A stretch of 64,000 nucleotides of DNA from Candidatus Bathyarchaeota archaeon (GCA_963739305.1 CAVTZU010000018.1:85682-149681), one strand, 5' to 3'. Positions 24,118-63,005 are shown, counted from the first letter of the stretch. The notes: generated from the letters alone by a model not told the origin. A program made the numbers and translations.

Positions 24118-24598
24118 AGGGGTTCTTGCATAAGTTTGAACGCGTACGGTGTCCAGAAGTGAGTGTCTTCTTTTGATACGTTTGCCAACGCTTGCTCGTG
24201 TGCGCTGAACGAGGATTAGCGGAAAGGCATGGACTTGTTTAACAATTTCGCTGTAACAATCTGTCACAACCAGTTTTTCTTCTGGTTCACGAATTCCCAA
24301 TATATATAACATCGATTTTGAGTAACTTTTCAACTTCTGTAGCAGAGAACAATTCTCGGAGGAATGAGCTTCTTTTCTAGGACAAAGGATAAACTATTCC
24401 GAGAATACAGTACAAGTTCAGTGTCAGGGAATTTGTGAGAGCTGTTGGCTAGTTCGCGGTAGAGACAGGGAACAGCAAAAGGAACAAAGCTGGGAAAGGT
24501 TAGGCGATTCTTTTTTTGTTCAGACATCAACAAGCAACCTACCTGCCACTTAGTACTCCAGCGCGCATGCTAACCGATTTTACTCATAGTGAAGGCTA

Positions 24599-25441
24599 CT
24601 AGTAGTCTGCTAAGCGCGCGATTGCACGAAAAGCAACTTGACGCACCCGCACGCTGTTATCGTGGTAGATGATGTCTCGACGTTGGTCCTTTAGGCTTGC
24701 ACTGAACAAGGGGGGTCCCCGGTTCCAGTCTCTATTATTGTATTTCTTTTGGTACAAACTAATCGCTGTACGCAATTCATTTGCAGTCAGGCTTCCCTTT
24801 ATAAGGTTTACACGATACGTCTTTTCGTAGCCTTTTCTAATAGCATTCTTCGTTTCTTCCATGGTAATGCTTTCCAGAATTTCAGACAGGTTCACCAAGA
24901 TAGTGTGGGGGTTTTGGATCTTAAGAGCGCGTCCTAAAGTGCTAAAGTCAACGTTTACCATCAAGGTGCCGTGATGAAGGATAGCATCATACAGTCTGTG
25001 TTGAGCGCTCCCAGAGATTTTCTTTCTCTCTACTACTATGTTTCCGTTATTGTTGCGAGCTTGAACGCTCAGCATCCCAAGTCCTTCGACGACTCCCCCG
25101 CAAAAGAAGCTGTAAGACCTTTCTACATTCTCGATACCAACGGCCAGAGAGGGCTTCCTGACAATTATCGAATAATTCACATTACCATAGTCATGATAAA
25201 CAGCCCCACCTCCGGAGACTCTTCTGAAGATTCTGATCCCCAGCTTTTCGCAGTCAACAATGCTAGTAACAGACTTGGGATCTTGGAAATGTCCAATGAC
25301 GACGGCTGGCGGATTCTGCCACAGACGCAGAGTGTTGGGACCATTATTCTCCAGAACGGATCTTAAAATCGCTTCATCAATTGCCAGATTCATCGCAGGA
25401 TCTTCGGAACTGTAGTCGATCATTCGCCAGTTATCAGTCAT
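24599..25441 (-). CDS. Lipoate-protein ligase A catalytic domain
   Basis: NLAIDEA, RRVSGGGAVYHD, KKISGSAQ and HHGTL motifs. Confidence 0.88.
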   Translation of the reverse strand: MTDNWRMIDYSSEDPAMNLAIDEAILRSVLENNGPNTLRLWQNPPAVVIGHFQDPKSVTSIVDCEKLGIRIFRRVSGGGAVYHDYGNVNYSIIVRKPSLAVGIENVERSYSFFCGGVVEGLGMLSVQARNNNGNIVVERKKISGSAQHRLYDAILHHGTLMVNVDFSTLGRALKIQNPHTILVNLSEILESITMEETKNAIRKGYEKTYRVNLIKGSLTANELRTAISLYQKKYNNRDWNRGPPLFSASLKDQRRDIIYHDNSVRVRQVAFRAIARLADY

Positions 25442-25476
25442 ATCTTGGGCACCTGTAATGAGTTTGGTGGAAGATC

Positions 25477-26559
25477 CTATTTTCCGGGCAATGCGGCCAC
25501 AACTGCGTTTCTCAGGCATTCCCTAGTGGGCAGGGTCTTATCAAATTTCAATTCTCCATTGATGATTATTGCAGGAATTCTGCTGCATTTTTCAGCATCT
25601 ATAAGGGCTGAGGACAACTCTGGATAGACTCCATGCTGATTTATCCCCTTTCCTCTCATCCAGACTCTCACTGTGATGTCATCTTGCAAGCCCGACGTGA
25701 CATCGTTGACAAGATTGATGAGCTTACGGCACATTGAAGTCGGAGGATAAGCAACAAAAACTTCAAGCGACGCTTTTCCCATCCCGACGAAGAAGGGTTC
25801 TATCCCGTGCACGTTCCATTTCTCAAGGTTATATTTGGCTCTGTACAGCAAATTAGTCGATTTCTGTTCGTCTTCTGTTAATTTCTTTTTCAATTCGAAG
25901 ACTATTCCCAACTTCTTCTCAAAGCCGTCTATAAGAGCTGTCTTTGCTTCTTCCATCGAAACGTCTTTTCTTAGTTGGCGTTTCAGCGATGTTATCATCA
26001 GCTTCTGTTCCGTTGGCTTTTCAGTTTTGATCATTTTGTTGTAAGCGTTCACGTCAGTATTAACGAGCAGAGTTCCTTGAAATAGAAGGAAATCGTGAAA
26101 CCATTTTGGCAAAATCCCAGTCATTCTTCGTTCGCCAATATGAATTCCATCGGCATTCGCCTCAAGTTTGTCACTGAATTTTCGGAGCCCTTCAACGATT
26201 GCTGCGTTCAAAATAAAATACTCTGACAGGACAGGCGGGTAATCCGTAGTTCGCGTGTTGAAAAGTGCGGCATTCGCTGTAACAGCAAAATTCAAACTCC
26301 CCATATCCATGTAGAAAGGGTCGGCTGTGACTGATATTGCTCTGATGACTTCAACACCGTGTTTCCTGCATTCCTTTTGGTTGACGTCATCCTTGTATGA
26401 ACTGCCCGATCCAATAATCACAGAGGCTGGGCCTCGCCATAGCCGCAGTGTGTTCGGAGTCAAATTCTCTCTTCTGCTTCTAAAAATGGCCTCATTAATT
26501 GCCAGATCCATTCTCGGGTCGGCTGAACCGAAGTCAAGTAATCTCCATGTCTCAGCCAA
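25477..26559 (-). CDS. Degenerate LplA-like protein with C-terminal thioredoxin-like domain
   Basis: LplA scaffold (TWRLLD, LAINEA, TLRLW, QGTLLV) with altered active-site motifs. C-terminus PPTSMC...IPAIIINGE. Confidence 0.72.
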   Translation of the reverse strand: MAETWRLLDFGSADPRMDLAINEAIFRSRRENLTPNTLRLWRGPASVIIGSGSSYKDDVNQKECRKHGVEVIRAISVTADPFYMDMGSLNFAVTANAALFNTRTTDYPPVLSEYFILNAAIVEGLRKFSDKLEANADGIHIGERRMTGILPKWFHDFLLFQGTLLVNTDVNAYNKMIKTEKPTEQKLMITSLKRQLRKDVSMEEAKTALIDGFEKKLGIVFELKKKLTEDEQKSTNLLYRAKYNLEKWNVHGIEPFFVGMGKASLEVFVAYPPTSMCRKLINLVNDVTSGLQDDITVRVWMRGKGINQHGVYPELSSALIDAEKCSRIPAIIINGELKFDKTLPTRECLRNAVVAALPGK

Positions 26560-27283: not shown

Positions 27284-27307
27284 TGTCTTTCCCTCCGCGC
27301 GCGATGC

Positions 27308-29235
27308 TCATCCCTTAATCTTGGCTAGAGGCTTTGGCTTACTCAGCAACAGTAAAGCGGAATTGATTACCACCGATATGCATCCGGCTTCTGCAAGAAC
27401 AACTGCTAGGACTGGATTCAGGATGCCAAAAGCGGCTAAACTCAATGCAACTATGTTCCAAATGAAGGCGTAAACTATGTTCCCCTTCATTCTGTTAAAT
27501 GCCTTCCGACTCAGGCTAATCGCATACTCAACCTTTGTCAAGTCGTCTCCAAGGAGAGCTACGTCAGCAGTCTCCACGCCACATCGCTGCCAGCCGCACC
27601 CATAGCAAACCCAACATCCGAATTAGCCAACGCAGGAGCATCATTCACGCCGTCACCAACCATCGCGACTATACTGCCTTTTCTCAGCTCCCCAATGGCC
27701 TCAACTTTCTGTTCTGGTAAAAGCTCAGCGCGGTACTCATCGACCCCGATCTGTTCAGCGATGGATTTGGCAGTCCTTGCGTTGTCGCCAGTTATCATGG
27801 CAGTTTTGACTCCTAAACGCTTAAGCCTTAGTATAGCTTCCAAGGAATTCTCCCTGACCGTGTCAGCCACCACGATGACGCCAATTACATTTTTGTCAAG
27901 TGCCACGGGAATAGCTGTTTTTCCCTCGCTTTCAACTTTACTCATCAATTGACTCGCTTCTTCTGAAATCATCCGTTCCCATCATCTTGGTTCCAATCAG
28001 GATGTGCTTGTTTCCGTAATGAGCATCCACGCCGTGCCCTGGAACAGTTTTGAAGTCTGTAGGATCAGGAATTTTCATGCCTCATCTCAGTTGCCTTAGC
28101 GATGATGGCTTTGGACAGGGGATGCTCTGAGAATTTCTCGGCAATTGCTGCATACTTGATCGTGTCCGCTTCAGAGTAATTTCCGAAGGTTTTTATCTCA
28201 ACAACCTTAGGTTCGCCTAGGGTTAACGTGCCAGTTTTGTCGAAGGCCACCAGCTTAATGTCCTTTAGCTTCTCGATGTGTGTGCCGCCCTTGATTATTA
28301 TGCCGTTCATGCTGGCATTACCGATAGTGCCCGCAACAGCGACTGGAACAGCTATGGAAAGCGCGCAAGGGCATGCGACTAAGAGAACAGTCACGGTTCT
28401 GGCCAATGCCACGTCAAAACCAAGTGCGAAGTAACTCACCGCAAAGACAGAAGATGCCAAAACTGCCATGATTGGCAAGAAGTAAGTGGTAAACCGATCT
28501 GCAATGTTCTGTATCGGTGCTTTTTTCTCTTGAGCTTCTTCAACAAGTTGAATGAGATGAGCAAGCGTAGTGTCCTCAGCGATTTTTTCAACTTTGATTT
28601 CCAGTGCTCCACGTTCATTGAGTGTTCCAGCAAATGTGCGGTCTCCCACCGTCTTTTCTACAGGAATCGACTCGCCAGTTATAGTTGCCTGATTAACCGT
28701 GCTGTGTCCGGAAATCACTGTTCCGTCAACGGGTATTTTGTCGCCTGGTTTGACTAAGAACGATTTCGTCCATCTTGACCTCGTCTACGGGTATTTCAAC
28801 TTCGGTGCCGTCTCGACGTATTCGAGCAGTGGTGGGGCTCATTTTAATGAGCTTCTCAAGTGCGCCTCTTGTTCTATGGATGATGTAGTCTTCAAGCGTC
28901 ATACCTGCAAGTATTATGAACGCCACTATCGCTGATGCCGTGAGGTAACCAACTGCTTCTGCCGTGCCAGTGGCCGATGCCGAAGGCAGTACGAGACCAG
29001 CTATTACTGAAATGAAGATGGCGATAGTTGCAAACAATTGAGCGGTAACGTTCCCATGCCGCAGGGATCGAATGCCATGCAAATAGATGCGGTAGCCCAA
29101 GGCAACGGCGATCAAAGTTAAAGCAATGCTAATTTCATGCGCATAAGCTACTTGAGTCCCAGATATTAGGGCCCCTGCTAGAATGAATAGCCCAAGTGAA
29201 GCGACAAGAAGTACGCCTTTAAAATGCTCTCTCAT
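27308..29235 (-). pseudogene. Heavy-metal P1B-type ATPase interrupted by four frameshifts (pseudogene or sequencing errors)
   Basis: TGES, CPC, DKTGT, SEHP, TGDN and GDGVNDAP motifs spread over four ORFs; shifts near 28757, 28080, 27972 and 27577. Confidence 0.85.
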
Positions 29236-29492
29236 TGGATTTCCTCTCTCGATACTATCTCGACTTGGTAGCCTAACTTTTCAATGCGCTCAGTGATCTT
29301 GGAGAAGCCAATTTTCTGTGTGTCGTATTCTATGCTGACTTTGCCGGTTATCTCGTCAACTTTGACTTTCGATACTCCGCTTAACCTTGCAAGTGCGTGC
29401 CTGAGGTTTTCTGCTGCAAAGTCTGAAGCACATGCTTTGCACCCTGTGCAGTCTATTTTCGCGGTATTCAAGATCATTTTTTCAACAGTCAC
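29232..29492 (-). CDS. Heavy-metal-associated (HMA) domain chaperone
   Basis: IDCTGCKAC and L.GV..V.V..I..LGY pattern; abuts the ATPase. Confidence 0.78.
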   Translation of the reverse strand: MTVEKMILNTAKIDCTGCKACASDFAAENLRHALARLSGVSKVKVDEITGKVSIEYDTQKIGFSKITERIEKLGYQVEIVSREEIQ

Positions 29493-31484: not shown

Positions 31485-31833
31485 GCAAGACTTGATGGAT
31501 AGAGTTATCAGAATCAGAAGCTGGCAAGAATTCAAGCGCTTAGCTATCAATCTCAAACCTGAGTCCGTGGTTTACAACATAGAACAGAACGGTCTTTCTC
31601 CAGAAAGAGAGCTGACCTGTTTGAGGTTGATCATGCCGACTCAAGAAGTAGCGCGCGCGCTCTACTACATTTTCCTTGACTTCCCAAGAGAGGACGACTG
31701 CGGGAAACAGGCCATTCCAATACGAAAGGATAGAAAAGGGAACGGATGCCTGGAGGACAAAGATATAATAGATTTTCTCAAAACCCAACTAGAAATAAAG
31801 GATTTGACCGTCTGTTCGTACTGGACTATCTAG
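31462..31833 (+). CDS. Hypothetical protein (contains an internal CG-run motif)
   Basis: Protein-like ORF. An alternative-frame segment LRETG near 31695 hints at compensating indels. Confidence 0.55.
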   Translation: MSKNKANRQDLMDRVIRIRSWQEFKRLAINLKPESVVYNIEQNGLSPERELTCLRLIMPTQEVARALYYIFLDFPREDDCGKQAIPIRKDRKGNGCLEDKDIIDFLKTQLEIKDLTVCSYWTI

Positions 31834-31934
31834 TGGTCACACTTCAGAAGATGGCGCGCGCTATGCTTCTAGGGAAAATGTGCGTGCTAAATCTTAAATT
31901 CTGTCTGACTAATAGTGGGATTTGGTAATTTAGT

Positions 31935-33496: not shown

Positions 33497-35911
33497 TTAA
33501 TCCTCAAGCGTTTTGAATTTGCGTGTTAGGTACACCTTGATTGGATCGTTGATTAGAAAAGTCGTTAACAGCGCGTAGCCCAAGATTGCAAGCAGAGGCA
33601 TGTAGCCGAGTGGGGCAAGCTCTAAGACGCCGAAGCTGGAGATAGCGATCACGAACAGGATTTCTGCTAAGACTGTAATGCCAAGCAACCTGCTGGGTCT
33701 TGACTTCCAGAAGTGGTTCCGCTCACGAACGATCATTAGCGTGGATATGCCTGCAAGGTTCAGGTAGGCAAACCCGAAAGTGTAGATTTTCTCAACATTC
33801 CCAATTAGCCCAAAGTATGATAGAGCAGGCACTGCAAAGAGTGCACTTTCAACCGTCATTAGTGCGCCTAGTGAGCCGCTGACTCCGAATAGCCGTCGCA
33901 TGTCGAAGGTGTCAGGCTTGAGAGAAGAGCGCACATTGTCTGTTGATATGGACATGGAGACAAAGTCGCCGAGGAAAAGTATCAGCACCGTGCCCGTTAT
34001 TGATAGCATTAATGAGTGGGTGAGGAAAAGCATCAAAACGATGAATCCAGCGATGTGCAGTTTGCGGGCGACCATCATTAAAGCCCAGCTATAGATTCTC
34101 TGATAAATCGTCCGCGAAGTCTTAATCATGGGTATTATTCCTCCAAGACCCTCAGCGGTGAGTACAGCGCTGGCGGAGTCTTTGGCGATGTCTGTTGCGT
34201 TCTTTACGGCGATTCCCACTTCCGCCTGCCCCAAAGCTGGAGCGTCGTTCACGCCATCTCCAGTCATCCCAACCACATGTCCTATGCGTTGCAGAGTCTT
34301 GACTATGCTGAATTTGTCTTCGGGGTAAATCTGGGCTATGCCGTGGCTGTCTTCAATCGTTGAGTCAATAGGTGTTGCCTTGGTTTCATCTTCCTGAATC
34401 TTCGACATCGTGGTGACCCTGCTGCCTAATCCTACCTGCTGCGCGATGTTTTTAGCAATGGGAAGCGAGTCGCCCGTAAGCATCTTCACTTCTACACCTA
34501 ACGCATGAATCTGCTCTATTATCTCGCGTGAATCTTCTCTAATCCTGTCAGCGATGCCTGCAAGACCAACAAACTCCAGTCTGCTCCGTTCAGCTCCCTT
34601 GGCGACAGCGATCACTCTTAACCCTTTTGCGGAGAGTTGCTCAGCAATCGTGACCATAGCCTTTGCTTCCTCTTCCCGAGCGTTGCAGACAGCGCATATT
34701 ACGTCAAAAGAGCCCTTTCCGACAAAGAATTTTTCGCCAGCTTTGTCGATTGTGGCTTCTGTCATTCTAGTTTTAGGGTCGAAGGGTATGAATTCCTTTT
34801 GTATGCAAGTATTCAAGGGTATACGTGCCTCTGCAGCAGCTGTTAAGAAAGCTATGTCGATTGGGTCCTGATTGGCTTCATTCGATGAAAGTGCCCCATA
34901 AAGCAACACGTCGCCTTCGCCAAATCCGTTAAGAGGAACTTCTTCTTCAACGAAGAGTTTGTTCATCGTAATTGTGCCCGTTTTGTCTGCACACAGAACA
35001 TCCATCGTGGCTGCGTCCTCGCTCGCGCTCAGTCTTGTGACTAGGACGCTTTGTTTTGCAAGCATTGCTGAGCCGAGTGCCATGTTTATGGTAAACATCG
35101 TGGGCATGGCGATCGGCACGGAGGCTACGAGCAACACGCCGGCAAGTGGCAACAATACGGCAAGGTCGAAACCAGTCAATACAGCGTAGACAAAGACTAT
35201 CAAGAGAGATGCAAGCACGATGATGGCGAGTCGGCGTGCTACGTTGACTGTGACTTCTTCCATGTGAAGTTTTGGTTTAGCCAGTTCGAGCAGGGAAATG
35301 GTTTTTCCAAAGTAGGTTTTCGTTCCTGTGGCGGCAACTGTACCTGTGGCTTCGCCGCGTTTTACAGCCGATCCCGAATAGGCTATCTCTCCAACACTCT
35401 TATCCACGATTCCAGACTCGCCAGTGAGCACGGATTGGTCCAAACCGAGAGAACCATCAACAATCTTTACATCCGCAGGCAAAAGATCGCCAATTCTGAC
35501 TCTAACGAGATCGCCGGGAACAAGCTCCCTAGCCGCGATGACGGCCCATTTTCCTTCTCTCTTGACTCTGCTCTGAATCCTTAGTCGCTGTTTTAGAGTT
35601 GCCATTGCAGCTTTTGCCCTTTTCTCCCGCCACAGCGACATTCCAGCGTTGAAAAGAAGAAGACCTATGATTACGGCTGCTTGCACATACTTACCTAACA
35701 CCAATGTGACGATTGCAGTAGCTTCAAGCATCCAAGGTACGATGCCCCAGAAACGTTTTCCAAGTCTATTCCAAAAACTGACTTTCTTCTCAGAAACCTC
35801 ATTGTACCCATACTTCGCAAGTCTCTTCTGGACTTCTTGTGCATCCAACCCATTTTCCAGATTTGTTCCTTTCAATTCTTGTTCTTTGTCGGAATCGTCC
35901 AAAATCTTCAC
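33497..35911 (-). CDS. Plasma-membrane proton-efflux P-type ATPase (P3A)
   Basis: TGES, SVPIAMP, DKTGT, PFDP, TGD and GDGVNDAP motifs. Confidence 0.85.
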   Translation of the reverse strand: MKILDDSDKEQELKGTNLENGLDAQEVQKRLAKYGYNEVSEKKVSFWNRLGKRFWGIVPWMLEATAIVTLVLGKYVQAAVIIGLLLFNAGMSLWREKRAKAAMATLKQRLRIQSRVKREGKWAVIAARELVPGDLVRVRIGDLLPADVKIVDGSLGLDQSVLTGESGIVDKSVGEIAYSGSAVKRGEATGTVAATGTKTYFGKTISLLELAKPKLHMEEVTVNVARRLAIIVLASLLIVFVYAVLTGFDLAVLLPLAGVLLVASVPIAMPTMFTINMALGSAMLAKQSVLVTRLSASEDAATMDVLCADKTGTITMNKLFVEEEVPLNGFGEGDVLLYGALSSNEANQDPIDIAFLTAAAEARIPLNTCIQKEFIPFDPKTRMTEATIDKAGEKFFVGKGSFDVICAVCNAREEEAKAMVTIAEQLSAKGLRVIAVAKGAERSRLEFVGLAGIADRIREDSREIIEQIHALGVEVKMLTGDSLPIAKNIAQQVGLGSRVTTMSKIQEDETKATPIDSTIEDSHGIAQIYPEDKFSIVKTLQRIGHVVGMTGDGVNDAPALGQAEVGIAVKNATDIAKDSASAVLTAEGLGGIIPMIKTSRTIYQRIYSWALMMVARKLHIAGFIVLMLFLTHSLMLSITGTVLILFLGDFVSMSISTDNVRSSLKPDTFDMRRLFGVSGSLGALMTVESALFAVPALSYFGLIGNVEKIYTFGFAYLNLAGISTLMIVRERNHFWKSRPSRLLGITVLAEILFVIAISSFGVLELAPLGYMPLLAILGYALLTTFLINDPIKVYLTRKFKTLED

Positions 35912-38634: not shown

Positions 38635-39108
38635 ATGGAACAATTAGAACTGAAAGTTGACAAATATACGTTCATCGTTCCTAAAGGTCTCTACTACAAC
38701 GAGAATGATTTTTGGGCCAGAATTGAGGGCAAGATAGCAACCGTCGGCATAACGTCCTATCTGCAAAATCATTTGAGTGACATAGTCTTCGTCTCTCTCC
38801 CACAAATCGGCACCAAAATTGAACAATTCGGTGAAGCCGGATCCTTTGAATCAGTGAAGGCTGCTCTGGACGTTATATCACCTGTTTCAGGCTCAATAGT
38901 TGAAGTCAACAATGAATTAGTGAATTCGCCTGAACTTGCAAATTCAGATCCATATGGCAGAGGCTGGTTCGTGAAGATCGAGCTGACAGATTTTGAGTCA
39001 GACAAAGAGAATCTCATAGACGCAGAAGGCTACTTTGAGGTCATGAAGAAAAAAGTGGAAAAAGAACACGAGCAACTGAAACAAAAGCGAGCTGTAAACA
39101 CGACTTAG
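38635..39108 (+). CDS. Second GcvH-like lipoyl-carrier protein
   Basis: VGIT.YLQ, ESVKAA (lipoyl Lys) and NSDPYGRGW motifs. Confidence 0.88.
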   Translation: MEQLELKVDKYTFIVPKGLYYNENDFWARIEGKIATVGITSYLQNHLSDIVFVSLPQIGTKIEQFGEAGSFESVKAALDVISPVSGSIVEVNNELVNSPELANSDPYGRGWFVKIELTDFESDKENLIDAEGYFEVMKKKVEKEHEQLKQKRAVNTT

Positions 39109-39126
39109 AAAGAGGGCAGGCGAGTC

Positions 39127-39357
39127 GTGGAAACAAGTTTCAAGGAAATACGCGAGAAATATCGTTCTGTCAAGACCGGAAAGTCCAGCATTGACGTTTT
39201 CTCTCTGAAATCAGAAATTGAGACCTATGTGAAGAGTCAGCAAGGTTCGAAAACAAGAAACAGCAATTCTTTGGCGGAGGCAGAGGACATGTTGATTGAT
39301 GTGACACAGATGATTGAAGAGGGCCACTGCAACCCTCTAAGAAATAAGAAGCTGTAA
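39127..39357 (+). CDS. Small hypothetical protein
   Basis: ORF in the operon with a purine-rich leader. Confidence 0.5.
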   Translation: METSFKEIREKYRSVKTGKSSIDVFSLKSEIETYVKSQQGSKTRNSNSLAEAEDMLIDVTQMIEEGHCNPLRNKKL

Positions 39358-39441
39358 GTCATACTTCTGTCTGAGTTGGAACTATGAAGAAAATTCCGTT
39401 TGTCGCCCGCGCTAGTACTGAAATGAGGCTGTGATTAAGAC

Positions 39442-39876
39442 TTGGAAAAGACTAAAGTCATTTTTCTATGTGTAGGAAATTCGGCACGGAGCCAAATGGC
39501 TGAAGCATTCCTAAGAAAATATGCAGGTAATCATTTCGAGGTCTACAGTGCAGGCTTCGAACCCCGACCCATCCACCCTTACACCATCAAGGTGATGAGA
39601 GAACTGGGATATGACTTGAGTGGCCAGCATCCAAAGGAGTTGAAACAGTATCTTGGAAAGATACATTTCGGGATAGTCATAACAGTATGTGAAAAAGCAG
39701 AAAAGACGTGCCCTATGATACCAGGGGCATCCACTAGATTGTATTGGCCATTCGAAGACCCAGCAGCATTTCAAGGAACTGAAGAGGAGAAATTAGCCAA
39801 ATTCCGAGAAGTTCGAGATAAAATCAACGAAAAGATAAAAACATGGCTGAAAGACAGAGGCATCGCGGAAAACTGA
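39442..39876 (+). CDS. arsC: Arsenate reductase, LMW-PTP / thioredoxin-coupled type
   Basis: CVGNSARS, TVCEKAEKTCP and EDP motifs. Confidence 0.88.
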   Translation: MEKTKVIFLCVGNSARSQMAEAFLRKYAGNHFEVYSAGFEPRPIHPYTIKVMRELGYDLSGQHPKELKQYLGKIHFGIVITVCEKAEKTCPMIPGASTRLYWPFEDPAAFQGTEEEKLAKFREVRDKINEKIKTWLKDRGIAEN

Positions 39877-39991
39877 AAACCTCAAGATAATCGCGCGTCC
39901 AATATAGGCGATGAGGTTACGGTTAGTTTTCCAAGCGAAAAAAGTTATGTATTCGCATATGCAAGTGGATGGTTAAGGGAGGAATTAGCTG

Positions 39992-40654
39992 TTGAGTGAT
40001 CTCCTCTTGAAGTGGTTTGAGAAACGCAGAGAATCAAAAGCTTTAGCTCCGATGCAACGCCATCTTGCGATAACAATGAGCTCAGTTGAAGACCTTGAAA
40101 GTGCAGTAAAAGCAGCAGTTGATCTCAACGAAAAAGAAGCCAAGGCTGCAATAGGAAGGGTCACAAGTTCTGAGAAGGAAGCCGATGGACTGAGGAGAGC
40201 CGTTATGACTGAACTGGCATGCGGGGAGTTGCCGCCCTCAGACAGAGAATACCTGATGAACTTAATGAAGTCCGTCGACATGGTCGCAGACTGTAGCCAA
40301 GAATCAAGCCGGCTCTTGAGTGCCATTCCAATGGAAGATGTGTCAGAAAACCTCAAAAAAGCGCTGGTCAAGATGGTGGAAGGCGCTAAAGAATGTGCCA
40401 TGGCGCTGCGAAAATGCATTAATAGCATACCGGAAAAACGCGAAGAAGCCTTAAAAGCAGCAGACGAAGTCGAACGATTAGAAGAGAAAGTCGACGACCT
40501 ATTTGAAAACTCCAGACGTTTGATCGCCAGAGAGGAGAAGATTCGGGTAGGAACCGCCATATTACTGAATGATCTCTTTGAAGCTATTGAAATGGTTGCC
40601 AATCGATGTGAAGACGCCTGTGACCAAGTGAGAGTGATTGTCTGCTGCCGATAA
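39992..40654 (+). CDS. DUF47 / PhoU-like phosphate transport regulator
   Basis: E.EAD..RR, DRE and LEEKVD repeats. Confidence 0.8.
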   Translation: MSDLLLKWFEKRRESKALAPMQRHLAITMSSVEDLESAVKAAVDLNEKEAKAAIGRVTSSEKEADGLRRAVMTELACGELPPSDREYLMNLMKSVDMVADCSQESSRLLSAIPMEDVSENLKKALVKMVEGAKECAMALRKCINSIPEKREEALKAADEVERLEEKVDDLFENSRRLIAREEKIRVGTAILLNDLFEAIEMVANRCEDACDQVRVIVCCR

Positions 40655-40735
40655 ATGTTTTAGAAGGTGGATGGACGACTATCGTCCACGGTAATTGTCG
40701 TAGCGCACGCCAGTAACGCGACAAGGTGTTTGTGA

Positions 40736-41230: not shown

Positions 41231-41347
41231 GCGCGCTCTGCGCGATGTCAATTGAAAAATGTTATCACTCCTAGGGCGCCTTACTAGTCTGCGCGTTGAT
41301 TGAGTACGGAGAATGTTTATTTGTCCGTCTTGCATCCTAAAGTTTGT

Positions 41348-42841: not shown

Positions 42842-42867
42842 CGTACGGCACCCTTCTAGCGCGCGCT

Positions 42868-43245
42868 CTAATCTTGGTGATGGTGTGCGTGATGGCAGCC
42901 TTCGGTGAGTTCTTGAAGCTTGTCATCATTGTATGCAGCAATTACTTCTTTGACGGTATCCGCGTTTGCTTTCAGCACCGCTACTCCTGCTTCTTGGAAG
43001 CCATCTAAACCTCTTGGACCCATGCCGTAGGCTATTATCGCGTTTGGGTTTCGCTGCAGAATATGGTCATGCATATGCCCTTCGCTCCCAAAATGCTCGC
43101 CTTTGTTTTCCATTGTCTCAACGCTCTCGACTTTTCCATCGTCGTCCAGCGTTACAACAGCATAGAAGGGCGCTCTTCCGAAATGCTCCGCTATTCCAGC
43201 GTTCAAACCATTCCTGTCCGAAACAGGAACAATAACTTTTTTCAT
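42868..43245 (-). CDS. NifB/NifX (FeMo-cofactor-binding) family protein
   Basis: HFGRAP and GMGPR motifs; His-rich tail. Confidence 0.85.
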   Translation of the reverse strand: MKKVIVPVSDRNGLNAGIAEHFGRAPFYAVVTLDDDGKVESVETMENKGEHFGSEGHMHDHILQRNPNAIIAYGMGPRGLDGFQEAGVAVLKANADTVKEVIAAYNDDKLQELTEGCHHAHHHQD

Positions 43246-44122: not shown

Positions 44123-44135
44123 TTCGAAAACTCCT

Positions 44136-44596: not shown

Positions 44597-44598
44597 GA

Positions 44599-44618
44599 TT
44601 ATGAATAAATATTCATAA
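44599..44618. promoter_or_regulatory. Inverted repeat TTATGAATA-AA-TATTCATAA, putative DUF134 operator
   Basis: Perfect 9-bp arms immediately upstream of the DUF134 start. Confidence 0.6.
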
Positions 44619-44740
44619 CTCTCTTAAAGGTTTCGTAGCGCAAGCTGGAAAAGCAATATTCCGAAAACATGAAATTAGCGCGCGCTAGCCTCCGAAAACA
44701 ATAAGGCGTACATTTCTATGCTGGATGATCGTGGAGAACA

Positions 44741-45190: not shown

Positions 45191-45273
45191 ATAGGAGTTT
45201 TCACTCTTGATTAAGAATAGACATCTTCTCTAGATAAAAAAAAGGATGGGTCAGTGTCCTTCTTTGGAAAGTA

Positions 45274-45558: not shown

Positions 45559-45604
45559 ATACTCACCTCCTTTCTGCATTTCAGCTTGAAGCAGTCTGTT
45601 CTGG

Positions 45605-46021: not shown

Positions 46022-46150
46022 TTTGTTCACCATCATGAACGGCATCTGAAAAAGAATTTAAGGCTTGTGCAATAGCGGGAGCAAGCTCTCATAAATCGCA
46101 TATTCGCGCGCGCTATAATCAAACTCGGCGTAATGGCTGCTTTTAAACTT

Positions 46151-46547
46151 TCAAGGTTTATCCATATGGACTAATGTAAAATTCCTTATTCTTTGCGCAG
46201 GGATTCTGCTGTAGCCTTTTGAACATCTTCTCTCTGAGCACTGCCTCGTAGCAGCCCATTTCAGGATCGGAATCACTGCATCTCTGAGCCCCTCTACGTC
46301 TTTCGTCAGTGAATATTCAACACGAGGCGGGATCTCCGAATGATTTCCTTACGAGAAGCCCCTCATGCTGAAGCTGCTTCAACGTGTCTGCAAGCCTCTT
46401 CGGGCTCACTCCCCGCGCGCTGGGCGCGCCCACATTCAAATCAAAGCTCACGTCAAATTGCTTCTCAAAAAGAACGATAGCGTCGCGAGGAGGCGGAGAA
46501 ACTGCTCCGGCAGAATACACCTTCAACCGCGGCTTAATGGAAGGCAT
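46151..46547 (-). pseudogene. Chimeric remnant: ModA-like substrate-binding N-terminus joined to HxlR C-terminal half
   Basis: LKVYSAGAVS..., then the junction at 46413-46430, then GVSPKRLADTLKQL and (shifted frame) EIPPRVEYSLT. Confidence 0.7.
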
Positions 46548-46676
46548 CTACCAACTCACCGAGTTTGGTTGGGCTGGAGACAAATAATAACTTTTTGGGC
46601 AGAACGGGTCGATTAACAAAATAAGAAAAAGACCGAGCTGCAGGATTAAGCGCGCGCACAAGCAGAGAAGCTGCAG

Positions 46677-49988: not shown

Positions 49989-50624
49989 CGAACAAACCAC
50001 ATCAACGTACCATACGCATCTCAAAAAGGTTTTTGATAAACAACACACTGTAAGCCCAATTCTACTCCAAGAACCAAGAAACCGGCCCTAGAAGCCTTCA
50101 CAACACAACCGCAACACGATTCCAAGATTTACGCTTTTGCCTTCGAGCAAATTGAACCCCCAACCCACCTTCCCAAGTCGGTTCAGTTATGACTTTTCCG
50201 CAAGACCTCAAAGGCAGAAATCTCAAATCCATACTGCAACAAAGGATAAACTAGGGGTTCAAGAATGAATGATAAAGTTTGGATATTTCTTGTCTTCGGT
50301 ATCCTGCTGATGATGGGTGGAATAATCGGTTGCATATACTCGGTAACGCAACATACAGAAAACACGAACAGCAATCCCTTCCGTTATGATACCCATATCC
50401 GTACCAATATCTTGGTTTGGCACTCATCATCACGGGTTTGGTCATAATCGCGTTTGATTACATGTATGTTAAAAAGAGCGAAGAATCATCCGCTTCAAAA
50501 CAAGAAACGAATTAGAGATTCAAAAATGAGTGAAAAGAAAATCGTGAGAAGAAACCTTGCCACTGTGCCAAGAAGAATCATTCAAGTACTGATGACGTAC
50601 CCACGAGCGCGCGCTAAGAGGAAG

Positions 50625-50915: not shown

Positions 50916-51259
50916 GCATACCACATGCATAGTATGTGCACGTTATGTGCATATAAGGTTTAGCTTAGGTTTCTCTGTCTAGATATTTCGTGTGTGTTCC
51001 ATGAATGTATTTTGTTAAGGTTCTAGCGCGCACTATCCTATGTATATCTGCGTAAGACGCTCTCTAGTAGACCACGTTCTGGCCTCTGTAGCCAATGCAA
51101 AGAAAAGGAAGACAACAAAAGTTGCACGACGTAAAGACCTGACTTCGCGCTAGATAGAGCAAGCGCGGCCCATTCGTGGAAACAGAACTCCTGTCACTAT
51201 CCGAAATTCATAACATTTTTACATTATCTTTTCTGGTTATCTAACAAGGGAATTTGAAG

Positions 51260-51415
51260 ATGGTTAATTGTCCAGAATGCGGGAAACCGTTGAAAAAGAG
51301 CGGGCGTAAGTCCAGGTACTGTTGCGAAAACAGCGTTTGCTCCGTTATATTTGTTCGTCACCCTGACAACCAGTCCATAATGGAGATAGCATACAAGGCC
51401 AAGGCTCGCTCTTGA
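51260..51415 (+). CDS. 51-aa zinc-finger microprotein (not in ORF track)
   Basis: MVNCPECGKPL...YCCENSVC. Confidence 0.6.
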   Translation: MVNCPECGKPLKKSGRKSRYCCENSVCSVIFVRHPDNQSIMEIAYKAKARS

Positions 51416-51618
51416 ATCTTGTAAATGGTGAAATAGATGGGTGGTAAGGGCAGAGACAAAAGGAAAAGAAGAGAAAAGAAAAGAGAAAGAAGGAATTTGT
51501 GATAGGCTATTCTCTGGTTTTTGTCAGTTCTTCCAGCTCATGGGTTGGCTCGAGCGCGCTCCAAGTTTCTGTTAAACAATGAAAGCGAAGGGGAAAATTC
51601 AAGTTGGCTTGGTGATTG

Positions 51619-52075
51619 CTATTGTTTCCGCGCATAGATGGACTCTGTCTTATAACCTATTCTTTGCCAATCATCGTATAAATACGCGTATATGGTGGAG
51701 TACCCCGTTTCCTTGGGTGTGAACTCAGCTGATTAACGGGCTTCCTCTCCAACGGGAAGATCCTTTACCTCTGTTGTGGCTTGCTTTTCAGACTTTCCTG
51801 AGGGGGGTTCCACCCAGAATTCCAGTTTCAGCCCCGTACTTTTTTGCAAGCCCTTGACTGTTGCCTCGACACTGATGGTCTTTCCAATCATCGTATACGG
51901 GTTTGAAAGCACCAGCAAGCTTCCGATTTCCGCTTTTTCCCCGCTTACTTTGATTTTCGTCCAACCGGATTCCCACCAGAAATATTTTTCCCACCAAACT
52001 TACGTCCTCTGATGGTGACGTATACATCGGCTGGTCCAAACGCGTTAACCCGGAAGACCACTTCCTTCTCTGGCA
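51619..52075 (-). pseudogene. C-terminal fragment of a beta-rich protein (frameshift plus internal TAA at 51733)
   Basis: The reading frame continues past the stop: ...GEEAR*SAEFTPKETGYSTIYAYLYDDWQRIG. Confidence 0.55.
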
Positions 52076-52465: not shown

Positions 52466-52743
52466 TCTCCACCTTCCTTGCCTGTGCTTATTGGATAGAA
52501 GAGCTCCACAAAAAAGGTTGAAACACTTCGATTTCCTTCGTTTTCTAGTCAAAATCAACGAAAAACTCCGAAACAAAAAGCGAAATACAAAATTGAAGCT
52601 TTTATGGCAAAAACACCATTCGACACATTCCTAGCCCGCGCCTTGATGTTGCGAACAAGTTGTACAAAAATCCTTTCGAAACCTTCATAAACGCTAGAGG
52701 GTGTTCGAGAAACGCTGAAGAGCGCGGAAAGAGAACAACAAGG

Positions 52744-53976
52744 ATGGAAAGACGTAGACTTGCAGTATTCGATGTTGAAGGTGTGCTAATTCCTAAAAGG
52801 CGCTATCTACTCTTTGAGGTAGGCAGGAAACTTGGCTTTTCGCAGTTTGCAAGAATAGCTTTGTATGGAGTATTATACGAGCTGGGTCTAATTTCACTGA
52901 AATCCGCAATGAAGCATGTGTTCAAGTTTTTCGAAGGTTTCCCGGCCGATGAGCTTCTTCAGATTTTTAGGCAGATTCCATTGTTGCCTGGTGTAAAAGA
53001 GGTTTTTAGGAAACTGAGCAGCGCAGGCTGGAAGACCGCGTTGATAAGCTCTGGGTTGCCAACTTTTGTCGTTCGGGATTTGGCGTCAAGGCTTGGCGCT
53101 GACTATGCTTTCGGTTTTGAGTTGGGAACGAAAGACGCTGTTGTGACAGGAGAGATATGGGGAGACACTATTGAGCATGAAGGAAAGCTTACGATTTTGA
53201 GAAGGATCTTGGAAACCGAGGGATTAACCCCAGAAGACTGCGTTGTGGTTGTAGACGACCGAAATAACGCTCCAATAATGCTTCCAAAGATGCTGAAGAT
53301 AGGCTACAACCCTGATTTTATGGTCCGTATGAAAGCGGATTATGTAGTGACTGGGTATCCAATCAAAATCCTTTCCATGATTGAAGGTCAACCGAAAAGC
53401 CGAAGTTTGCCAACTAAGAATGATGTCCTTCGAGAGATCATTCATGCGTCCGGCTTCACAGTACCCGTTCTTTCGAGTCTGATAGGTGTCTACACCATTG
53501 CTTACCTCATCTTGTTCGTAACCGCCTTCTACGTTATCTCCGAGTTAACAATGATGGAGAAAAGGAGCTTGCCAGTAATCTCGTCAATAACTCGCCATGC
53601 CGCCACACCAGAAGAACTCTATGAATTCCGTGCCGCACCCGTATTCTTTGCTTTCGGAATACTGCTCACTCTACTCCTCTTTCCACGTCCTGCAAGCAGC
53701 GCCGCCATTGTGATATTCGCGCTCGGAGACAGCACAGCTTCAATCTTCGGAAAAATGTTTGGAAAGAAAATACTCTTTTTTAACAAAGGAAAAACATTAG
53801 AGGGTTCACTCATTGGTTTCGCTTTTGCCTTCTCGGCCGCCGCATTCTTCGTGACCCCGTTGACGGCGGCATCAGGAGCAGCTGTAGCCATGTTGATTGA
53901 AAGTCTGCCATTGCCAATAAACGACAACCTGGCTGTCCCATTAATCACAGGAGCTTTGCTGACTTTAATTCGTTAG
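52744..53976 (+). CDS. HAD (phosphoserine phosphatase-like) domain fused to a CTP-dependent dolichol/phytol kinase-like membrane domain
   Basis: AVFDVEGVL, LISSG, VDDRNN; then REIIH, ALGDSTASIFG, KTLEGS and DNLAVP motifs. Confidence 0.8.
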   Translation: MERRRLAVFDVEGVLIPKRRYLLFEVGRKLGFSQFARIALYGVLYELGLISLKSAMKHVFKFFEGFPADELLQIFRQIPLLPGVKEVFRKLSSAGWKTALISSGLPTFVVRDLASRLGADYAFGFELGTKDAVVTGEIWGDTIEHEGKLTILRRILETEGLTPEDCVVVVDDRNNAPIMLPKMLKIGYNPDFMVRMKADYVVTGYPIKILSMIEGQPKSRSLPTKNDVLREIIHASGFTVPVLSSLIGVYTIAYLILFVTAFYVISELTMMEKRSLPVISSITRHAATPEELYEFRAAPVFFAFGILLTLLLFPRPASSAAIVIFALGDSTASIFGKMFGKKILFFNKGKTLEGSLIGFAFAFSAAAFFVTPLTAASGAAVAMLIESLPLPINDNLAVPLITGALLTLIR

Positions 53977-54000: not shown

Positions 54001-54126
54001 GCCACGCGCGCGCAATTTAAGGTGTTACACTTTCCCATTCTGACAACATTGCTCAAAAGTCGCTCTCTTTCTAACACTGTTACAAAAAGGTCGTGTACGA
54101 AAAATTTCTAATACAGACGCGCGTTA
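54001..54126 (-). repeat. Spaced-motif element A (TGTTACA..CAACATTGC..TGTTACAAAAA), flanked by CG runs
   Basis: Inverted counterpart at 56087-56206. Confidence 0.65.
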
Positions 54127-54982: not shown

Positions 54983-55491
54983 AGAAGTAACAACTGCCAG
55001 ATATTTCCTAGCAAGGATGAGGGTCAATACTAGCTCAACAAGTATTGAGGTTCCCAGAATAAGAGCGCGCGCTATTCTGCAATTGCGGAGGCAACGTACT
55101 AGAACTGTTTGTTAGGAACTAACACGAAAAGATGCTGCATTTTATCCAAAGTTTCACCTTTCATCCATCAAAAAACTCTAAAAAAGGGCCCGAAGCCACG
55201 CCAAACGCGACCCCACTCCGCGGTAGCTAGCGCGCGCGACTTTTGTAACAAAAAACTGCACAAACATGTAACAAATCAGATTTTCCTAGTTTTTCCAAAA
55301 GACAACAAACCCAGCATCTTTTTTACTGTTTTTTCTCTCACTGGTGACTTGTAACGCGCGCTACTCTAATGGTTGATTAGTTTCAAATGAGAGATTTTTT
55401 GCCTATAGAACTTACTTCCACAAAGCTCTTATTCTGACATTGTATTAGAAATCCAACTGCGTGAGCGAGGAGTCAGGAGGTGTGAAGAAAA

Positions 55492-57269: not shown

Positions 57270-57622
57270 ATGCCGTAGTGCTACACGCGCTCACTCGCGC
57301 GGGCTTCTATTTGACGAAGACTCCTTTGCTCTTTAGGTGTTCACTGATGCGCGCGTGTGTGATAACAACACATTCAACTTTCGCTTCAGTTTGAGCCTCA
57401 AAAAAATCACGCATTGAGTACTCAAACACAAGGACTCGAATCTCAACATGGAGCAGCCAGCGCCCCATGCTGTTTCTCGGGCGGCAAGCCTGAAACCGGA
57501 GGCGTCTCATCAAAAGGTTTATTCACAGGCACATAAAGTACAGTTGTAAACGTTCACACAATGCCCTAACGAGGCAAGCATCCGATGTGAACGCCACGAA
57601 TGATGAAGAGAAGGAAACCCCG

Positions 57623-60501: not shown

Positions 60502-60860
60502 ATGGCTAAGCATCGGGACAGAATCGGAATCATAGCGGACGTGTTGAAAGCCGCGGGAAAAGGTGTAAAAAAGACGAGATAATGCGCACGGCAAACTTGA
60601 GTTGCGGGATTCTGAAGAAGTACTTGGATGAGGCTGTGGGCTTAGGCTATCTGTCGCTCAACCAGGAAGAGTACAAAGTCACCGAAGACGGAGATGTCTT
60701 CCTAAAAAAGTACGTCGAGTATTCGAGCCGATACTCAAGCGTGGGAAGAGAATTGGAAAACATGAAACTGGAGAAAGGAGTTGACGAGAATGTGTATGAA
60801 CAACAGGAAGTTTGGATTGAAGTCTTCAGCCAACAAGGGGCAACTTGTTCAAGCCCCTGA
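60502..60860 (+). pseudogene. Archaeal winged-helix regulator, frameshifted near 60580
   Basis: MAKHRDRIGIIADVL...KKT, then IMRTANLS...YKVT..G in the shifted frame. Confidence 0.65.
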
Positions 60861-60949
60861 CTCAGGTTCAGAATCTGGCTAGGCGATTGGTCTTACGCGC
60901 ATTGGATAAACCCTAGTGTACGAGGAAGATCGCGGGATGGTTCGAGCGT

Positions 60950-62453
60950 ATGCATGATTCGAAGATTTCTATGGCAAGGCCTTCGTTTAGAAAGAGATGG
61001 AGAAAGCTGCAGTTGACGCTCTGTGGAATGAACATTTTGTCTCTGGAGAGAGTGTCGCAAAGTTTGAGGAGGAATTTGCGGATACTGCGGAGTTGACTGT
61101 GCCGTTTCCACAAGCTCAGGCACCGCCGCGTTGTCAATTGCTCTGACGGCCTTAGATGTCAAGAATGGAGCCTCTGTCATTACCACTCCCGCTTCGTTTG
61201 TGGCTACCGCGAATGCCGTTCTACACTCTGGCGGGACGCCAAAGTTTGTGGACATAGACATGCAAACATACAACATTGACCCTGAAAGCGTAAAAGCTGC
61301 AGTTGAAACTCGCACACGAGCAGTTATTCCCGTCCATCTTTACGGGTATCCAGCTGATATCGATGCAATGAAGCAAACGGGCGAGAAGAAGGGGTTTGCT
61401 GTTGTTGAGGATGCGTGTCAAGCTCATGGAGCATACTACAAAGGTCGAAAAGTCGGAGGGTTGGGCGATGTCGCTTGTTTCAGTTTCTATCCGTCTAAGA
61501 ACATGACTGTTGCCGGCGACGGTGGAATGCTTGTCACGAACAACGAAAAGATTGCTCGTAAAGCTTCTAAGCTTGGGGATTGTGGGAGAAAGAGCAAGTA
61601 TGTTCATGACTTAGTGGGCTACACGGCACGCTTGAACACTGTGAACGCTGCGATTGGCAGGGTTCAGCTCAAGTATCTTGACGAATGGAACGAGAAGAGG
61701 AGGAGGAATGCAGAAACCTACAATCGACTGCTTTCAGACGTTGAAGAGCTGTGTCTTCCTCCGGCTGGAGACAAGTCCACTCGTCCGGTCTATCATCTCT
61801 TGTTTGTATTTGCCGGCGCAGGTCTGCTGGCTGTGGCACTGGCGCTAGCGATTGTTCCGAACGCAAGTTCGCTTTTTGATTTGGATCGAACCATGCAAAT
61901 CACACTTCTGCCCTTTTCGATTTTCATTGCCATAGTTGTTCTTAAAATCTACAATACGAGACACTTTGGTAAACTACTTGCAATCTTCCTTGTAGTGTTA
62001 TTCCTACTGGAAACTCTCCAGTTGCCTATTCTGTACACCTCAGCCAGCAATCTCAGTCGAGAATCCTACATCTTCTCGTTTTCACACATCATCGCTTTTT
62101 ATGACGTTTCTGACTTCCAGTTTGCGAAGTGGGCCGACAGGTATACTTCAAATTCCTCTTTCTTTGCTTCAGACACAAAAGGACACAATCTCTGTTTGAT
62201 AACCAATCGCATGTGTGTCGAGCCACAGGGCGCGAATGTTTCTGATACCATTGCACTCCTAGAAAGTGGAAAAACTGACTACTTTTTAGTCCTTTCTTAT
62301 CTGAATAACTACATGTCATACTCTTCGAAGGATGGCGCTCACTTAGAGTTAAACTCAACAGAGATTTCAGGGCTACTGGATAACGGCTGCATGAATGGGA
62401 TCTACGATAATTCAAGGGTAATCAATTTCGCATATGTCAACCCTATTCCATGA
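60950..62453 (+). pseudogene. DegT/DnrJ sugar aminotransferase (frameshifted N-terminus, truncated near 61795) fused to the C-terminus of an unrelated membrane protein
   Basis: FEEEFA, SSGTAAL, PVHLYG, EDACQAHG, FSFYPSK and PVYHL motifs, then an abrupt hydrophobic unrelated sequence. Confidence 0.75.
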
Positions 62454-63005
62454 AAATAGGAATACAATCGAAAAGTTGGCTTTAGTATGGTATCGAAGGA
62501 AATTGATTGTCTGACAATAGGAGACGTTATGTTTGACGTCTATGTTGGAAACTTCGCAAACCCTATTCACCGCTCAGCTCGTCTCAACATACGACGGGCC
62601 ATCAATGCTGCTGATAGACTCAAGAAAACTGAAAACCGCAGCACTCACAATAGGAATACTCTTCCTGGCAACAGTGGCCATACACATATACACGAAAAGT
62701 CAACGTGAAACATCAGCCGCGCTCATCTTTTCCCACTTAAACTATAACCTGAACCTGTCGACAGTTTTTCTGCCATCCTCTGCCACGGCGGCTGCTCGAT
62801 ACCCAGCGGTAGCATTGTCGTCTTCACTATTGAACAAGCACACGCGCTCCGACAGCAGGTTCGCCCAAAATCGGCTGTATGTTTATATTCTATTCTTCGA
62901 GAACACTAGGTTGCAGAGGAACTGGTACGTAGCGCGCATGCCTGTTCCGAAATTCGTCTTTTGATTCTATTAGGTGAGTCCCGTATCTCTCTCGTGAGGT
63001 GAATA

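Follow-up and report, generated by a model that had tools for sequence, protein, structure and literature searches.

For eukaryotic transposons, excision scars are textbook knowledge: in the Tc1/mariner, P element and Ac/Ds systems, end joining leaves a footprint consisting of a short palindrome of the last bases of both repeats, with the target dinucleotide flanking it. In prokaryotes such scars have hardly been considered, on the assumption that the donor site either disappears or is restored from a sister copy, and to our knowledge they are no habit of IS5-like elements. The archaeal palindrome described here, TAGCGCGCGCTA in its perfect form, resembles the eukaryotic footprints in that variants, adjacent deletions and filler DNA accompany it. 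It differs from them in its archaeal host, in the IS5/IS1182-like nature of the transposase, in its hundreds of copies per 2.3 Mb, in its preferred 4+4 form and in that excision is here something we infer. The associated elements are comparable to the IS5 and IS1182 families in combining DUF772 with DDE_Tnp_1, in their length of about 1.1 kb, in their inverted repeats of 20-23 bp and in having non-autonomous 205-bp derivatives; we know of no case in which GCGCGC tips and abundant solo tip-junctions are a familiar feature of these families.

Other described repeats offer partial parallels. With the REP sequences of RAYT systems the motif shares hundreds of extragenic palindromic copies, a bias to 3' ends and convergent gaps, and a relationship to some insertion sequences, of which REPs are targets; unlike them, it spans 12 bp only, with no hairpin-sized (~20-40 nt) palindrome, GTAG head or accompanying Y1/RAYT gene. 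As in attC and pdif systems, single-gene modules are bounded by a repeated site and empty sites keep one copy; however, there is no structured 60-120-bp attC, no 28-bp Xer site and no linked integrase, the sites are of mixed orientation and dispersed rather than gathered in one array, and the motif arises where the parental sequences lack it. Further, HIP1 (GCGATCGC) of cyanobacteria, which is frequent inside genes too, is likewise a hyper-abundant 8-bp GC palindrome of lineage-specific frequency. Two reports tie HIP1 to methyltransferases (PMC4390886, PMC5861425). A search of the literature on the motif, archaeal palindromic repeats and prokaryotic excision footprints found no description of such a system.

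The window analyzed here is the whole 64,000-nucleotide stretch of Candidatus Bathyarchaeota archaeon DNA, for which an earlier note had proposed about 30 such palindromes as sites of a recombination or cassette system. Scanning it for TAGCGCGCGCTA with at most two mismatches, against a background of 100 dinucleotide-preserving shuffles, recovered 16 matches as compared with a shuffle mean of 1.21 and maximum of 5; none of the 100 shuffles reached 16, and the excess is about 13 times chance. All 16 lie within 31649-60090 and include a sole perfect copy (Table 1). Alternating-GC runs of at least 6 number 34, of which 32 lie after 24.5 kb and two (1668, 21950) in the first 24 kb, the part whose intergenic DNA had been described as nearly motif-free. 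On rough gene calls, the window sites are mostly intergenic, in keeping with the earlier description, with exceptions at 28361, 48241, 57882, 58448, 58533 and 59519; the contact with stop codons is likewise real at 41230, 42868 and 53976. Among the 36 positions originally given, about 25 carry a run of at least 6 and five are two-mismatch variants (32769, 39403, 40701, 53988, 60079), whereas about six (32718, 51146, 52073, 52632, 56087, 56669) are weak or were not recovered.

Table 1. Motif sites and the insertion sequence in the window (window coordinates).
Feature	Position	Strand	Context
Perfect TAGCGCGCGCTA	44676..44687		Intergenic; right boundary of a conserved block, at which the three relatives sharing the block have no motif
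TAGCGCGCGCTC	42857..42868		Final CTA reads, on the reverse strand, as the TAG stop of gene 42868-43245; block 42867-44674 has its left end here
TCGCGCGCGCTA	46104..46115		Junction of two blocks placed apart in G001/G008 and G002
CGCGCGC	46414..46420		Deletion junction with motif; the two joined fragments are 2.8 kb apart in G002
GCGCGCGC	46650..46657		Intergenic; 20 nt from stop of 1103-aa gene
GCGCGC	41231..41236		Immediately 3' of TAG stop of gene 40790-41230
TAGCGCGCGCGC variant	31649..31660		Window scan
TGGCGCGCGCTA	31852..31863		Intergenic
GAGCGCGCGCTA	50605..50616		Intergenic
TAGCGCGCACTA variant	51024..51035		Intergenic
TAGCGCGCGACA	53974..53985		Gene 52660-53976 terminates at the TAG within
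CGCGCGCGC	54005..54013		Intergenic; one flank common to C10:98279
GAGCGCGCGCTA	55063..55074		Intergenic
TAGCGCGCGCGA	55228..55239		Intergenic
TAACGCGCGCTA	55352..55363		Intergenic
CGCGCGCG	27296..27303		End of G002-shared block (27296-29459), beside P-type ATPase fragments
GCGCGCG	24614..24620		With GCGCGC at 24561-24566, first intergenic sites past the syntenic core
GCGCGCG	57349..57355		Intergenic
IS left end, TA|GCGCGC-ATGCCTGTTCCGAAAT	62930..62954	+	Terminal inverted repeat; tip is the half-motif
DDE transposase (DUF772 + DDE_Tnp_1), IS5/IS1182-like	63006..63992	+	Element cut by contig end

The framing of the motif as a feature of the accessory region proved too narrow, because it is found genome-wide: no 8-mer in the genome (G000) is more over-represented than GCGCGCGC, which has 359 copies observed against about 22 expected, and there are 29 perfect 12-mers. 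The copies are clustered, with an enrichment at contig ends, and the density of GCGCGCGC is 27 times higher in intergenic DNA, only 50 of the 359 copies being coding; in 11 cases the motif overlaps a TAG stop. Each of the 10 further genomes from the genus is rich in it, as are scattered genera within the order, and its distribution among genera is patchy. The over-represented 8-bp palindrome and its lineage-specific abundance might recall a HIP1-like iterated sequence maintained by methyltransferase and mismatch-repair bias, or a signal for DNA uptake. However, we regard this as highly improbable, given that the motif, unlike HIP1, is nearly absent from coding DNA, that G000 has no match to the C5 methylase domain (PF00145) and that the association with junctions discussed below would be left unexplained. 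The N4/N6 methylases were likewise set aside, as motif-free genomes carry them too.

Comparison of the flanks detected no palindromy or conservation beyond ±2 around the motif, with complementarity there at background and composition flat from position 3 outward; the conserved unit is 12 bp without arms. Clustering of the 60-nt flanks of 501 sites, in search of MITE or IS ends, yielded no multi-copy family, only pairs that mostly derive from duplicated contigs. With respect to genes, sites are broadly over-abundant close to stop codons (of 297 stop-side distances, 88 are no more than 30 nt), with no positional peak otherwise. The earlier note had held that a fixed distance to TATA boxes or transcript ends would count against its proposal; none was found to TATA-like boxes or T-runs, nor to start codons. 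These patterns bear on the idea that the palindrome binds a dimeric protein at gene boundaries (a regulator, insulator, terminator factor or nucleoid protein), its enrichment in accessory DNA being functional. A 12-bp intergenic palindrome with a 3'-end skew, some copies of which adjoin highly conserved genes (TBP, TFB, Alba, thermosome), would suit such a role, but the lack of fixed spacing, the presence of the motif in all types of intergenic region, the rarity of orthologous conservation, the patchy genus distribution and the exact match to transposon ends make it very unlikely.

That match emerges from the insertion sequence at 63006, which had been set apart from the motif as unrelated; contrary to this, its left end begins TA|GCGCGC at 62930-62937. 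The element at 62930-64000 matches PF01609 (DDE_Tnp_1, 7.2e-25) and, N-terminally, PF05598 (DUF772, 1.2e-10), while the NCBIfam IS-family models all score below their cut-offs (IS1182, 139 bits against 270; IS5_4, 103 bits against 140). Judged by these profile matches, it is related to the IS5/IS1182 families and lies outside any defined one. Terminal inverted repeats of 20-23 bp starting with GCGCGC are present in the copies of G001, G004, G007 and G163; the window copy shows the left end only. The G001 copy reads ...ACGTA|GCGCGCATGCGTGTTCCTAAATT ... AATTTCGGAACACACATGCGCGC|TATTT, and its left end recurs in the window copy, as aligned for the G000/G001 pair. Transposase subfamilies at 44-87% amino-acid identity (G004, G007, G002, G163) all abut GCGCGC, and a 205-bp MITE with about 25 copies in G001 has the same tips as the IS. 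GC runs always stand beside the element, TA usually but not always: it is found on both sides of the G001 IS and some MITEs and not on both sides of the G163, G004 and G007 copies, the right flank being CC in G163, AC in G004 and mixed in the MITEs. Despite its 359 core motif copies, G000 has one assembled IS and no MITE, and no partners were found for two solo GCACGC-tipped ends in G001.

Since the IS and MITE end in GCGCGC, usually beside TA, joining of their ends would leave TA+GCGC|GCGC+TA, and the motif TA-GCGC|GCGC-TA is indeed identical to what the two tips, once joined, would give for an element that this lineage carries. On balance, we think it probable that the palindrome is an excision scar of a cut-and-paste DDE transposon family comprising this IS, its relatives and the MITE; ends or footprints of a transposon, which the earlier note had listed as an alternative, thus give the best fit. 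The data show the match of motif and element ends, the distributions and the junctions; excision, the part played by end joining and the movement of motif-bounded cassettes are deduced from them. An element departing would leave a few tip bases on each flank, and Ku/LigD-type enzymes would rejoin the break into the full palindrome. Such scars would persist in intergenic DNA and at stop codons and accumulate in variable regions. Their tolerance at stop codons could be due to TA+G remaking a TAG stop, and their presence at rearrangement junctions to the same breaks giving rise to deletions, filler DNA and fragment capture. The intergenic bias, the lack of conserved flanks, the clustering at contig ends and the TAG-stop overlaps favor this account. 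Against it, many copies do not have TA on both sides (as in G163, G004 and the MITE right flanks), so that a TA duplication is at most putative, and assembled elements are scarce in G000 relative to its motif copies. Further, TA(GC)nTA occurs 3, 29 and 1 times for n = 3, 4 and 5, respectively, and this strong preference for the 8-base run suggests a tighter process than sloppy end joining predicts.

Five sites that contain the MITE in G001 and are empty in relatives help in weighing scar against target. Short putative GC scars mark four of the empty sites (TA-GCGGCGC-TA, GCGCG-TAC, GCGGCCGC and, in G002, GCGCACGC), and the fifth, in G008, is clean (GAATA|GTTCGC). The scarred sites could alternatively be decayed targets, which counts against excision. 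On the main rival reading, the motif would be a preferred insertion target with some other origin or function, as REP sequences are for IS1397 or IS621, the element entering at the center of GCGCGCGC and duplicating 4-8 bp so as to place GCGCGC on each flank. The filled GCGCGC...GCGCGC sites and the empty G002 site are explained equally well if an 8-bp target has 4 bp duplicated, a GC-rich palindrome-like string lies at four of the five empty sites, GC runs are constant beside the element where TA is not, complete 8-runs flanked by TA adjoin some of the ends (G001 1671430, 1535550 and 823106; G004:C22), and some motif-rich genomes have no transposase. Nevertheless, this reading appears rather improbable. 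In a relative, G029, the corresponding non-palindromic hexamer lies in inverted orientation (CGTGC...GCACG) within a 22-nt inverted repeat, and in this one case it therefore belongs to the tip of the repeat rather than being a directly duplicated target. Additionally, a GC run is wholly absent from one empty site, the other four are all imperfect although perfect copies abound, the motif arises de novo at junctions, and the data hold no other generator of it, be it a C5 methylase, RAYT or flanking conservation.

The motif is rarely conserved at orthologous positions: in comparison with G001, 11 of 242 intergenic regions with the motif are syntenic versus 709 of 1895 without it. Near-identical contigs differ by a 4.2-kb indel, with the insert in C2 lying between two TAGCGCGCGC copies and C3 having one copy at the empty site, and duplicated single-gene segments of 585, 307 and 953 bp in G001 have the motif at all four ends, at both loci. 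The contention that the motif bounds modules and lies at rearrangement junctions is thus upheld. Inter-genome homology blocks also end on it, yet 22 of 35 homology ends in one comparison lie away from motifs, and promoter-like repeats form the ends of two of the three C2/C3 indels; over 108 kb of alignment between near-identical contigs, four small indel events were found, none involving the motif. The motif occurs as new sequence at junctions for which relatives are uninterrupted, one case being a clean 9-bp insertion at C26:47462; the GC run at 46104..46115 is likewise new at its junction, and at the native or source loci in relatives the same block ends lack it. The counterpart of 41231..41236 has GC runs in G001 and G008 as well, with downstream DNA varying among genomes and, in G008, a 21-nt TIR-like remnant flanked by two GC runs. 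An X2 contig joins window 46077 to 44691 with CGCGCT between. The high-identity G000-G001 blocks were also considered as recent transfers, a view weakened by many of them being the conserved genes named above.

The motif-bounded indel and duplicated segments, the block ends and the X2 joint were in line with the original proposal of an integron- or pdif-like site at which a dedicated recombinase inserts, excises or inverts cassettes. However, we hold such a site to be unlikely. Besides the absence of arms, the motif-free source loci and the many ends away from motifs, searches found no serine recombinase/resolvase or IS110 transposase and, in G000 (97% complete), no Y1/RAYT match (PF01797), and tyrosine recombinases show no correlation with the motif, being equally common in motif-free genera. 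Cas1 was also considered as an integrase and rejected, with only broken fragments in G000 and G001. Identical duplicated segments with full motifs at both loci are, for their part, no direct consequence of simple excision and count against the scar too.

The rejoining step proposed for the scars would find a candidate machinery in G000, which has an end-joining operon of LigD Prim-Pol, Ku, and ligase plus phosphoesterase; Pol-Ku-ligase operons are rare in archaea. In a sample of the order comprising 12 genomes with at least 10 copies of AGCGCGCGCT and 189 others, Ku occurs in 7/12 versus 22/189 and the transposase in 5/12 versus 14/189. Both are present in the three genomes with the most copies (82, 91 and 121), of which two come from another family and have a 76%-identical IS. 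Motif-rich genomes in which Ku was not detected (G059, of 100% completeness, G151, G209, G045, G184) or which have no transposase (G138, G142, G151, G141 and others) also occur, and Ku-positive, motif-free genomes are common, all of which counts against the scar. A more doubtful extension is that transposase and Ku/LigD may together form a natural cut-and-ligate machine that moves promoter-bearing cassettes bounded by full motifs without a site-specific recombinase. Self-complementary GC ends would be common to all breaks at tips, and perhaps to those at old scars as well, such that DNA between two breaks could be set free, turned around, lost or joined into a further break; if true, archaea would have a novel way of forming and exchanging cassettes. 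If the scar interpretation itself is true, several archaeal lineages hold hundreds of datable scars recording past transposon activity, along with indirect evidence of Ku/LigD end joining working in living archaea and a simple origin for the deletions, replacements and small mobile segments by which the accessory genome is shaped.

Among the contig ends listed for short contigs of relatives, a few are loose ends at motif sites. In these genomes the motif provides a cheap marker of variable regions and assembly breaks.

On balance, the motif, an alternating-GC palindrome with the 8-base core GCGCGCGC, is probably the excision scar of a transposon family with GCGCGC tips, sealed by end joining. 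The transposase near the window's end, which belongs to a DDE transposon cut by the contig end, is preceded at 62930 by TA and GCGCGC-ATGCCTGTTCCGAAAT, and both ends of the element are visible in the copy of the complete same-genus genome G001, where TA borders GCGCGCATGCGTGTTCC...GGAACACACATGCGCGC on each side. GCGCGC adjoins all of the copies compared, i.e., those of G004, G007 and G002 (44-87% identity) and of G163 from another genus (74%), while the inner repeat sequences differ among them. A 205-bp non-autonomous relative (MITE) with the same tips occurs in about 25 copies in G001, 27 in G002 and 16 in G008, with no copies found in the host genome. Since these tips usually lie beside TA, the motif can be decomposed into TA, four tip bases, four further tip bases and TA.

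The main rival to an excision scar is that the motif represents the target site of the transposon, which we consider unlikely. In G029 the hexamer is non-palindromic and inverted (CGTGC / GCACG) inside a 22-nt inverted repeat; it is hence to be regarded as the repeat tip, because a target duplication would be direct. Further, five sites were compared at which G001 carries the MITE and relatives lack it. The empty site of G008 is clean, with no GC run, those of G010 read TA-GCGGCGC-TA, GCGCG-TAC and GCGGCCGC with small flank losses, and that of G002 reads GCGCACGC. At two of the five, the loci of further relatives vary: there are deletions, unrelated stretches of 150 nt to 7 kb, and the canonical TA-GCGCGCGC-TA junction. 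Together with the G029 tip, these alleles would favour scars, although some may instead be decayed targets.

The window corresponds to C18:85682-149681 of the host genome, an assembly of 36 contigs and 2.317 Mb. The core is the most over-represented 8-mer of the host genome, with 359 copies as compared with about 22 expected under an order-2 Markov model, although some genomic counts are inflated by near-identical contig pairs. These pairs (C2/C3, C7/C31, C13/C17, C16/C22, C12/C21 and C29/C35; 95-100% identity over 2-11 kb) reflect strain variation or repeats that the assembly failed to resolve, the stated contamination being 7.8%. The 12-mer with TA flanks, TAGCGCGCGCTA, has 16 window matches at two or fewer mismatches, spanning 31649 to 60090 (shuffles averaged 1.21 and 0 of 100 reached 16), and only 2 of the 34 alternating-GC runs of at least 6 fall within the first 24 kb. 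The sites listed in the earlier note are mostly correct, with about 6 of 36 positions weak, and the excess over background that it proposed to look for is clear, but the motif extends genome-wide, beyond the window's accessory region. Information around the core is confined to ±1 and ±2 (A/T 46-50%, T/A 43-45%), past which the host-genome copies show neither conservation nor self-complementarity; GC runs of length 6, 7, 8, 9 and 10 number 398, 150, 202, 96 and 48, with an abrupt stop above 10.

In a rough gene annotation of our own (2331 genes, coding fraction 82%), 309 of the 359 copies of the core lie between genes, where their density is 27 times higher, as against ratios of 0.7-1.2 for six control GC palindromes. 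Density is 1.1 per kb in convergent, 0.65 in tandem and 0.58 in divergent gaps. Stop codons tend to lie close by: of 297 stop-side distances, 88 are 30 nt or less, and the TAG of the motif is itself the gene's stop codon in 11 cases. Sites are clustered (216 bins of 10 kb, mean 1.44, variance 3.46), with many of the motif-rich bins at contig ends. TATA-like boxes, T-runs and A-runs within 200 nt bear no positional relation to the motif, and the flanks are of even composition from position 3 on; thus, the fixed spacing to promoter or transcript-end signals that would have refuted the earlier note's reading in favour of a regulatory site was not observed.

The expectation that synteny breaks fall on the motif is supported by alignment to G001: 11 of 242 intergenic regions with a run of at least 8 are syntenic versus 709 of 1895 lacking the motif, and among gaps of at least 100 bp the figures are 10/205 and 182/795 (Fisher p = 1.4e-10). 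Between C2 and C3 (96-98% identical, one of the near-identical pairs), a 4.2-kb stretch with two genes lies between two TAGCGCGCGC copies in C2, and the empty site in C3 holds a single copy; the two other indels of this pair end at promoter-like repeats, off the motif. Among 35 internal homology ends of duplicates of at least 90% identity, the motif is present at 13, in both copies at 4 of these and in one copy at 9, and is absent from the other 22. Window blocks ending on motif sites (see table) continue in G001, G002 and G008 into conserved flanks without it. The GC run is new junction sequence at 46105 and likewise at 46414, where the window lacks 2.8 kb that G002 retains; at C26:47462 it is a clean 9-bp insertion. 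In G001, which has few repeats and no multi-copy insertion sequence, single-gene segments of 585 bp (100% identity), 307 bp (93%) and 953 bp (93%), each present at two loci, bear the motif at all four ends and encode no transposase. Fragments freed between two element breaks could have been ligated into a third break, which would yield segments bounded by full motifs.

The earlier note's reading, cassette recombination at dedicated sites, fits this junction pattern, but its mechanism was not borne out, no dedicated recombinase having been found, and we give it a slim chance. Searches of the host genome for a resolvase, Y1/RAYT transposase, C5 methylase and IS110 transposase found none; 12 tyrosine recombinases exceed the family cut-off, and the suggested correlation with the motif fails, as they are equally numerous in motif-free genera.

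Coordinates of blocks, segments and genes (bare positions, window; G000, host genome; C, contig)
Position	Feature	Remark
39001-41235	window block	ends on motif site
42867-44674	window block	ends on motif sites
45237-46105	window block	ends on motif site
46114-46416	window block	ends on motif sites
46418-46620	window block	ends on motif site
51189-51412	multi-copy segment, ~225 bp	promoter-like box, 53-aa zinc-ribbon ORF (51254-51415)
51570-52071	second multi-copy segment	
27559-29235	P-type heavy-metal ATPase in separate ORFs	E1-E2_ATPase and hydrolase pieces
33497-35911	intact 804-aa ATPase paralogue	
63006-63992	transposase	DUF772 + DDE_Tnp_1
G000:C32:49491-53027	end-joining operon (L151)	outside window
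G163:C10:68167-69135	related transposase (L152)	another genus
G124:C11:54557-55537	related transposase (L153)	another family
G001:2026633-2026794 and 2258379-2259247; G000:C18:9381-9596	Cas1	scattered fragments only
C2:12100-12800; C3:5640-5730; C8:6376 and 9042; C30:1984-2010	repeated promoter-like string GGGGTAAAGTTTTATCC	at several non-motif indel/homology ends
C11:77.9-79.2 kb; C8:38.2-40.9 kb; C14:49.5-50.1 kb; C13:73.5-75.1 kb	paralogous TBP, TFB, Alba, SSB-like OB-fold protein	motif-dense stretches
G001: 865-873 kb; 1415-1419 kb; 1662-1681 kb	counterparts of these clusters	

One Cas1 fragment stops exactly at a motif, with about 50 bp of its paralogue replaced by AGCGCGCGCGT. The zinc-ribbon segment is multi-copy in G000, G001, G002, G005 and G008 at 78-86% identity and frequently motif-bounded. 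The split ATPase appears to be a disrupted gene; an HMA-domain protein and an ArsR regulator are encoded beside it.

With respect to sealing, the operon on C32 encodes a LigD-type primase-polymerase, Ku and an ATP ligase fused to a 3'-phosphoesterase. A preprint (10.1101/2023.09.30.560322) describes Ku as missing from most archaea and archaeal end-joining genes as unclustered; such a compact clustered set is unusual in an archaeon. Every one of the 10 further genomes of the genus shows enrichment of AGCGCGCGCT (7-114 copies versus 0-3 for a control pattern), as do scattered genera of the order, sampled by 201 genomes. Ku was found in 7 of the 12 with at least 10 copies and 22 of the 189 others, and the transposase (one query, E <= 1e-15) in 5/12 and 14/189, tallies that take in related and hence non-independent genomes. 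The seven genomes with both have motif counts of 82, 1, 6, 10, 0, 91 and 121; Ku was not detected in G059 (100% complete, 30 copies), nor either gene in G151 (40 copies). Each is thus neither sufficient nor necessary for motif richness. G108 and G124, the two richest motif genomes, from another family, carry a 76%-identical element, and the 74-76% identity of transposases outside the genus, which we judge too close for the taxonomic distance, suggests that the element may have been transferred horizontally.
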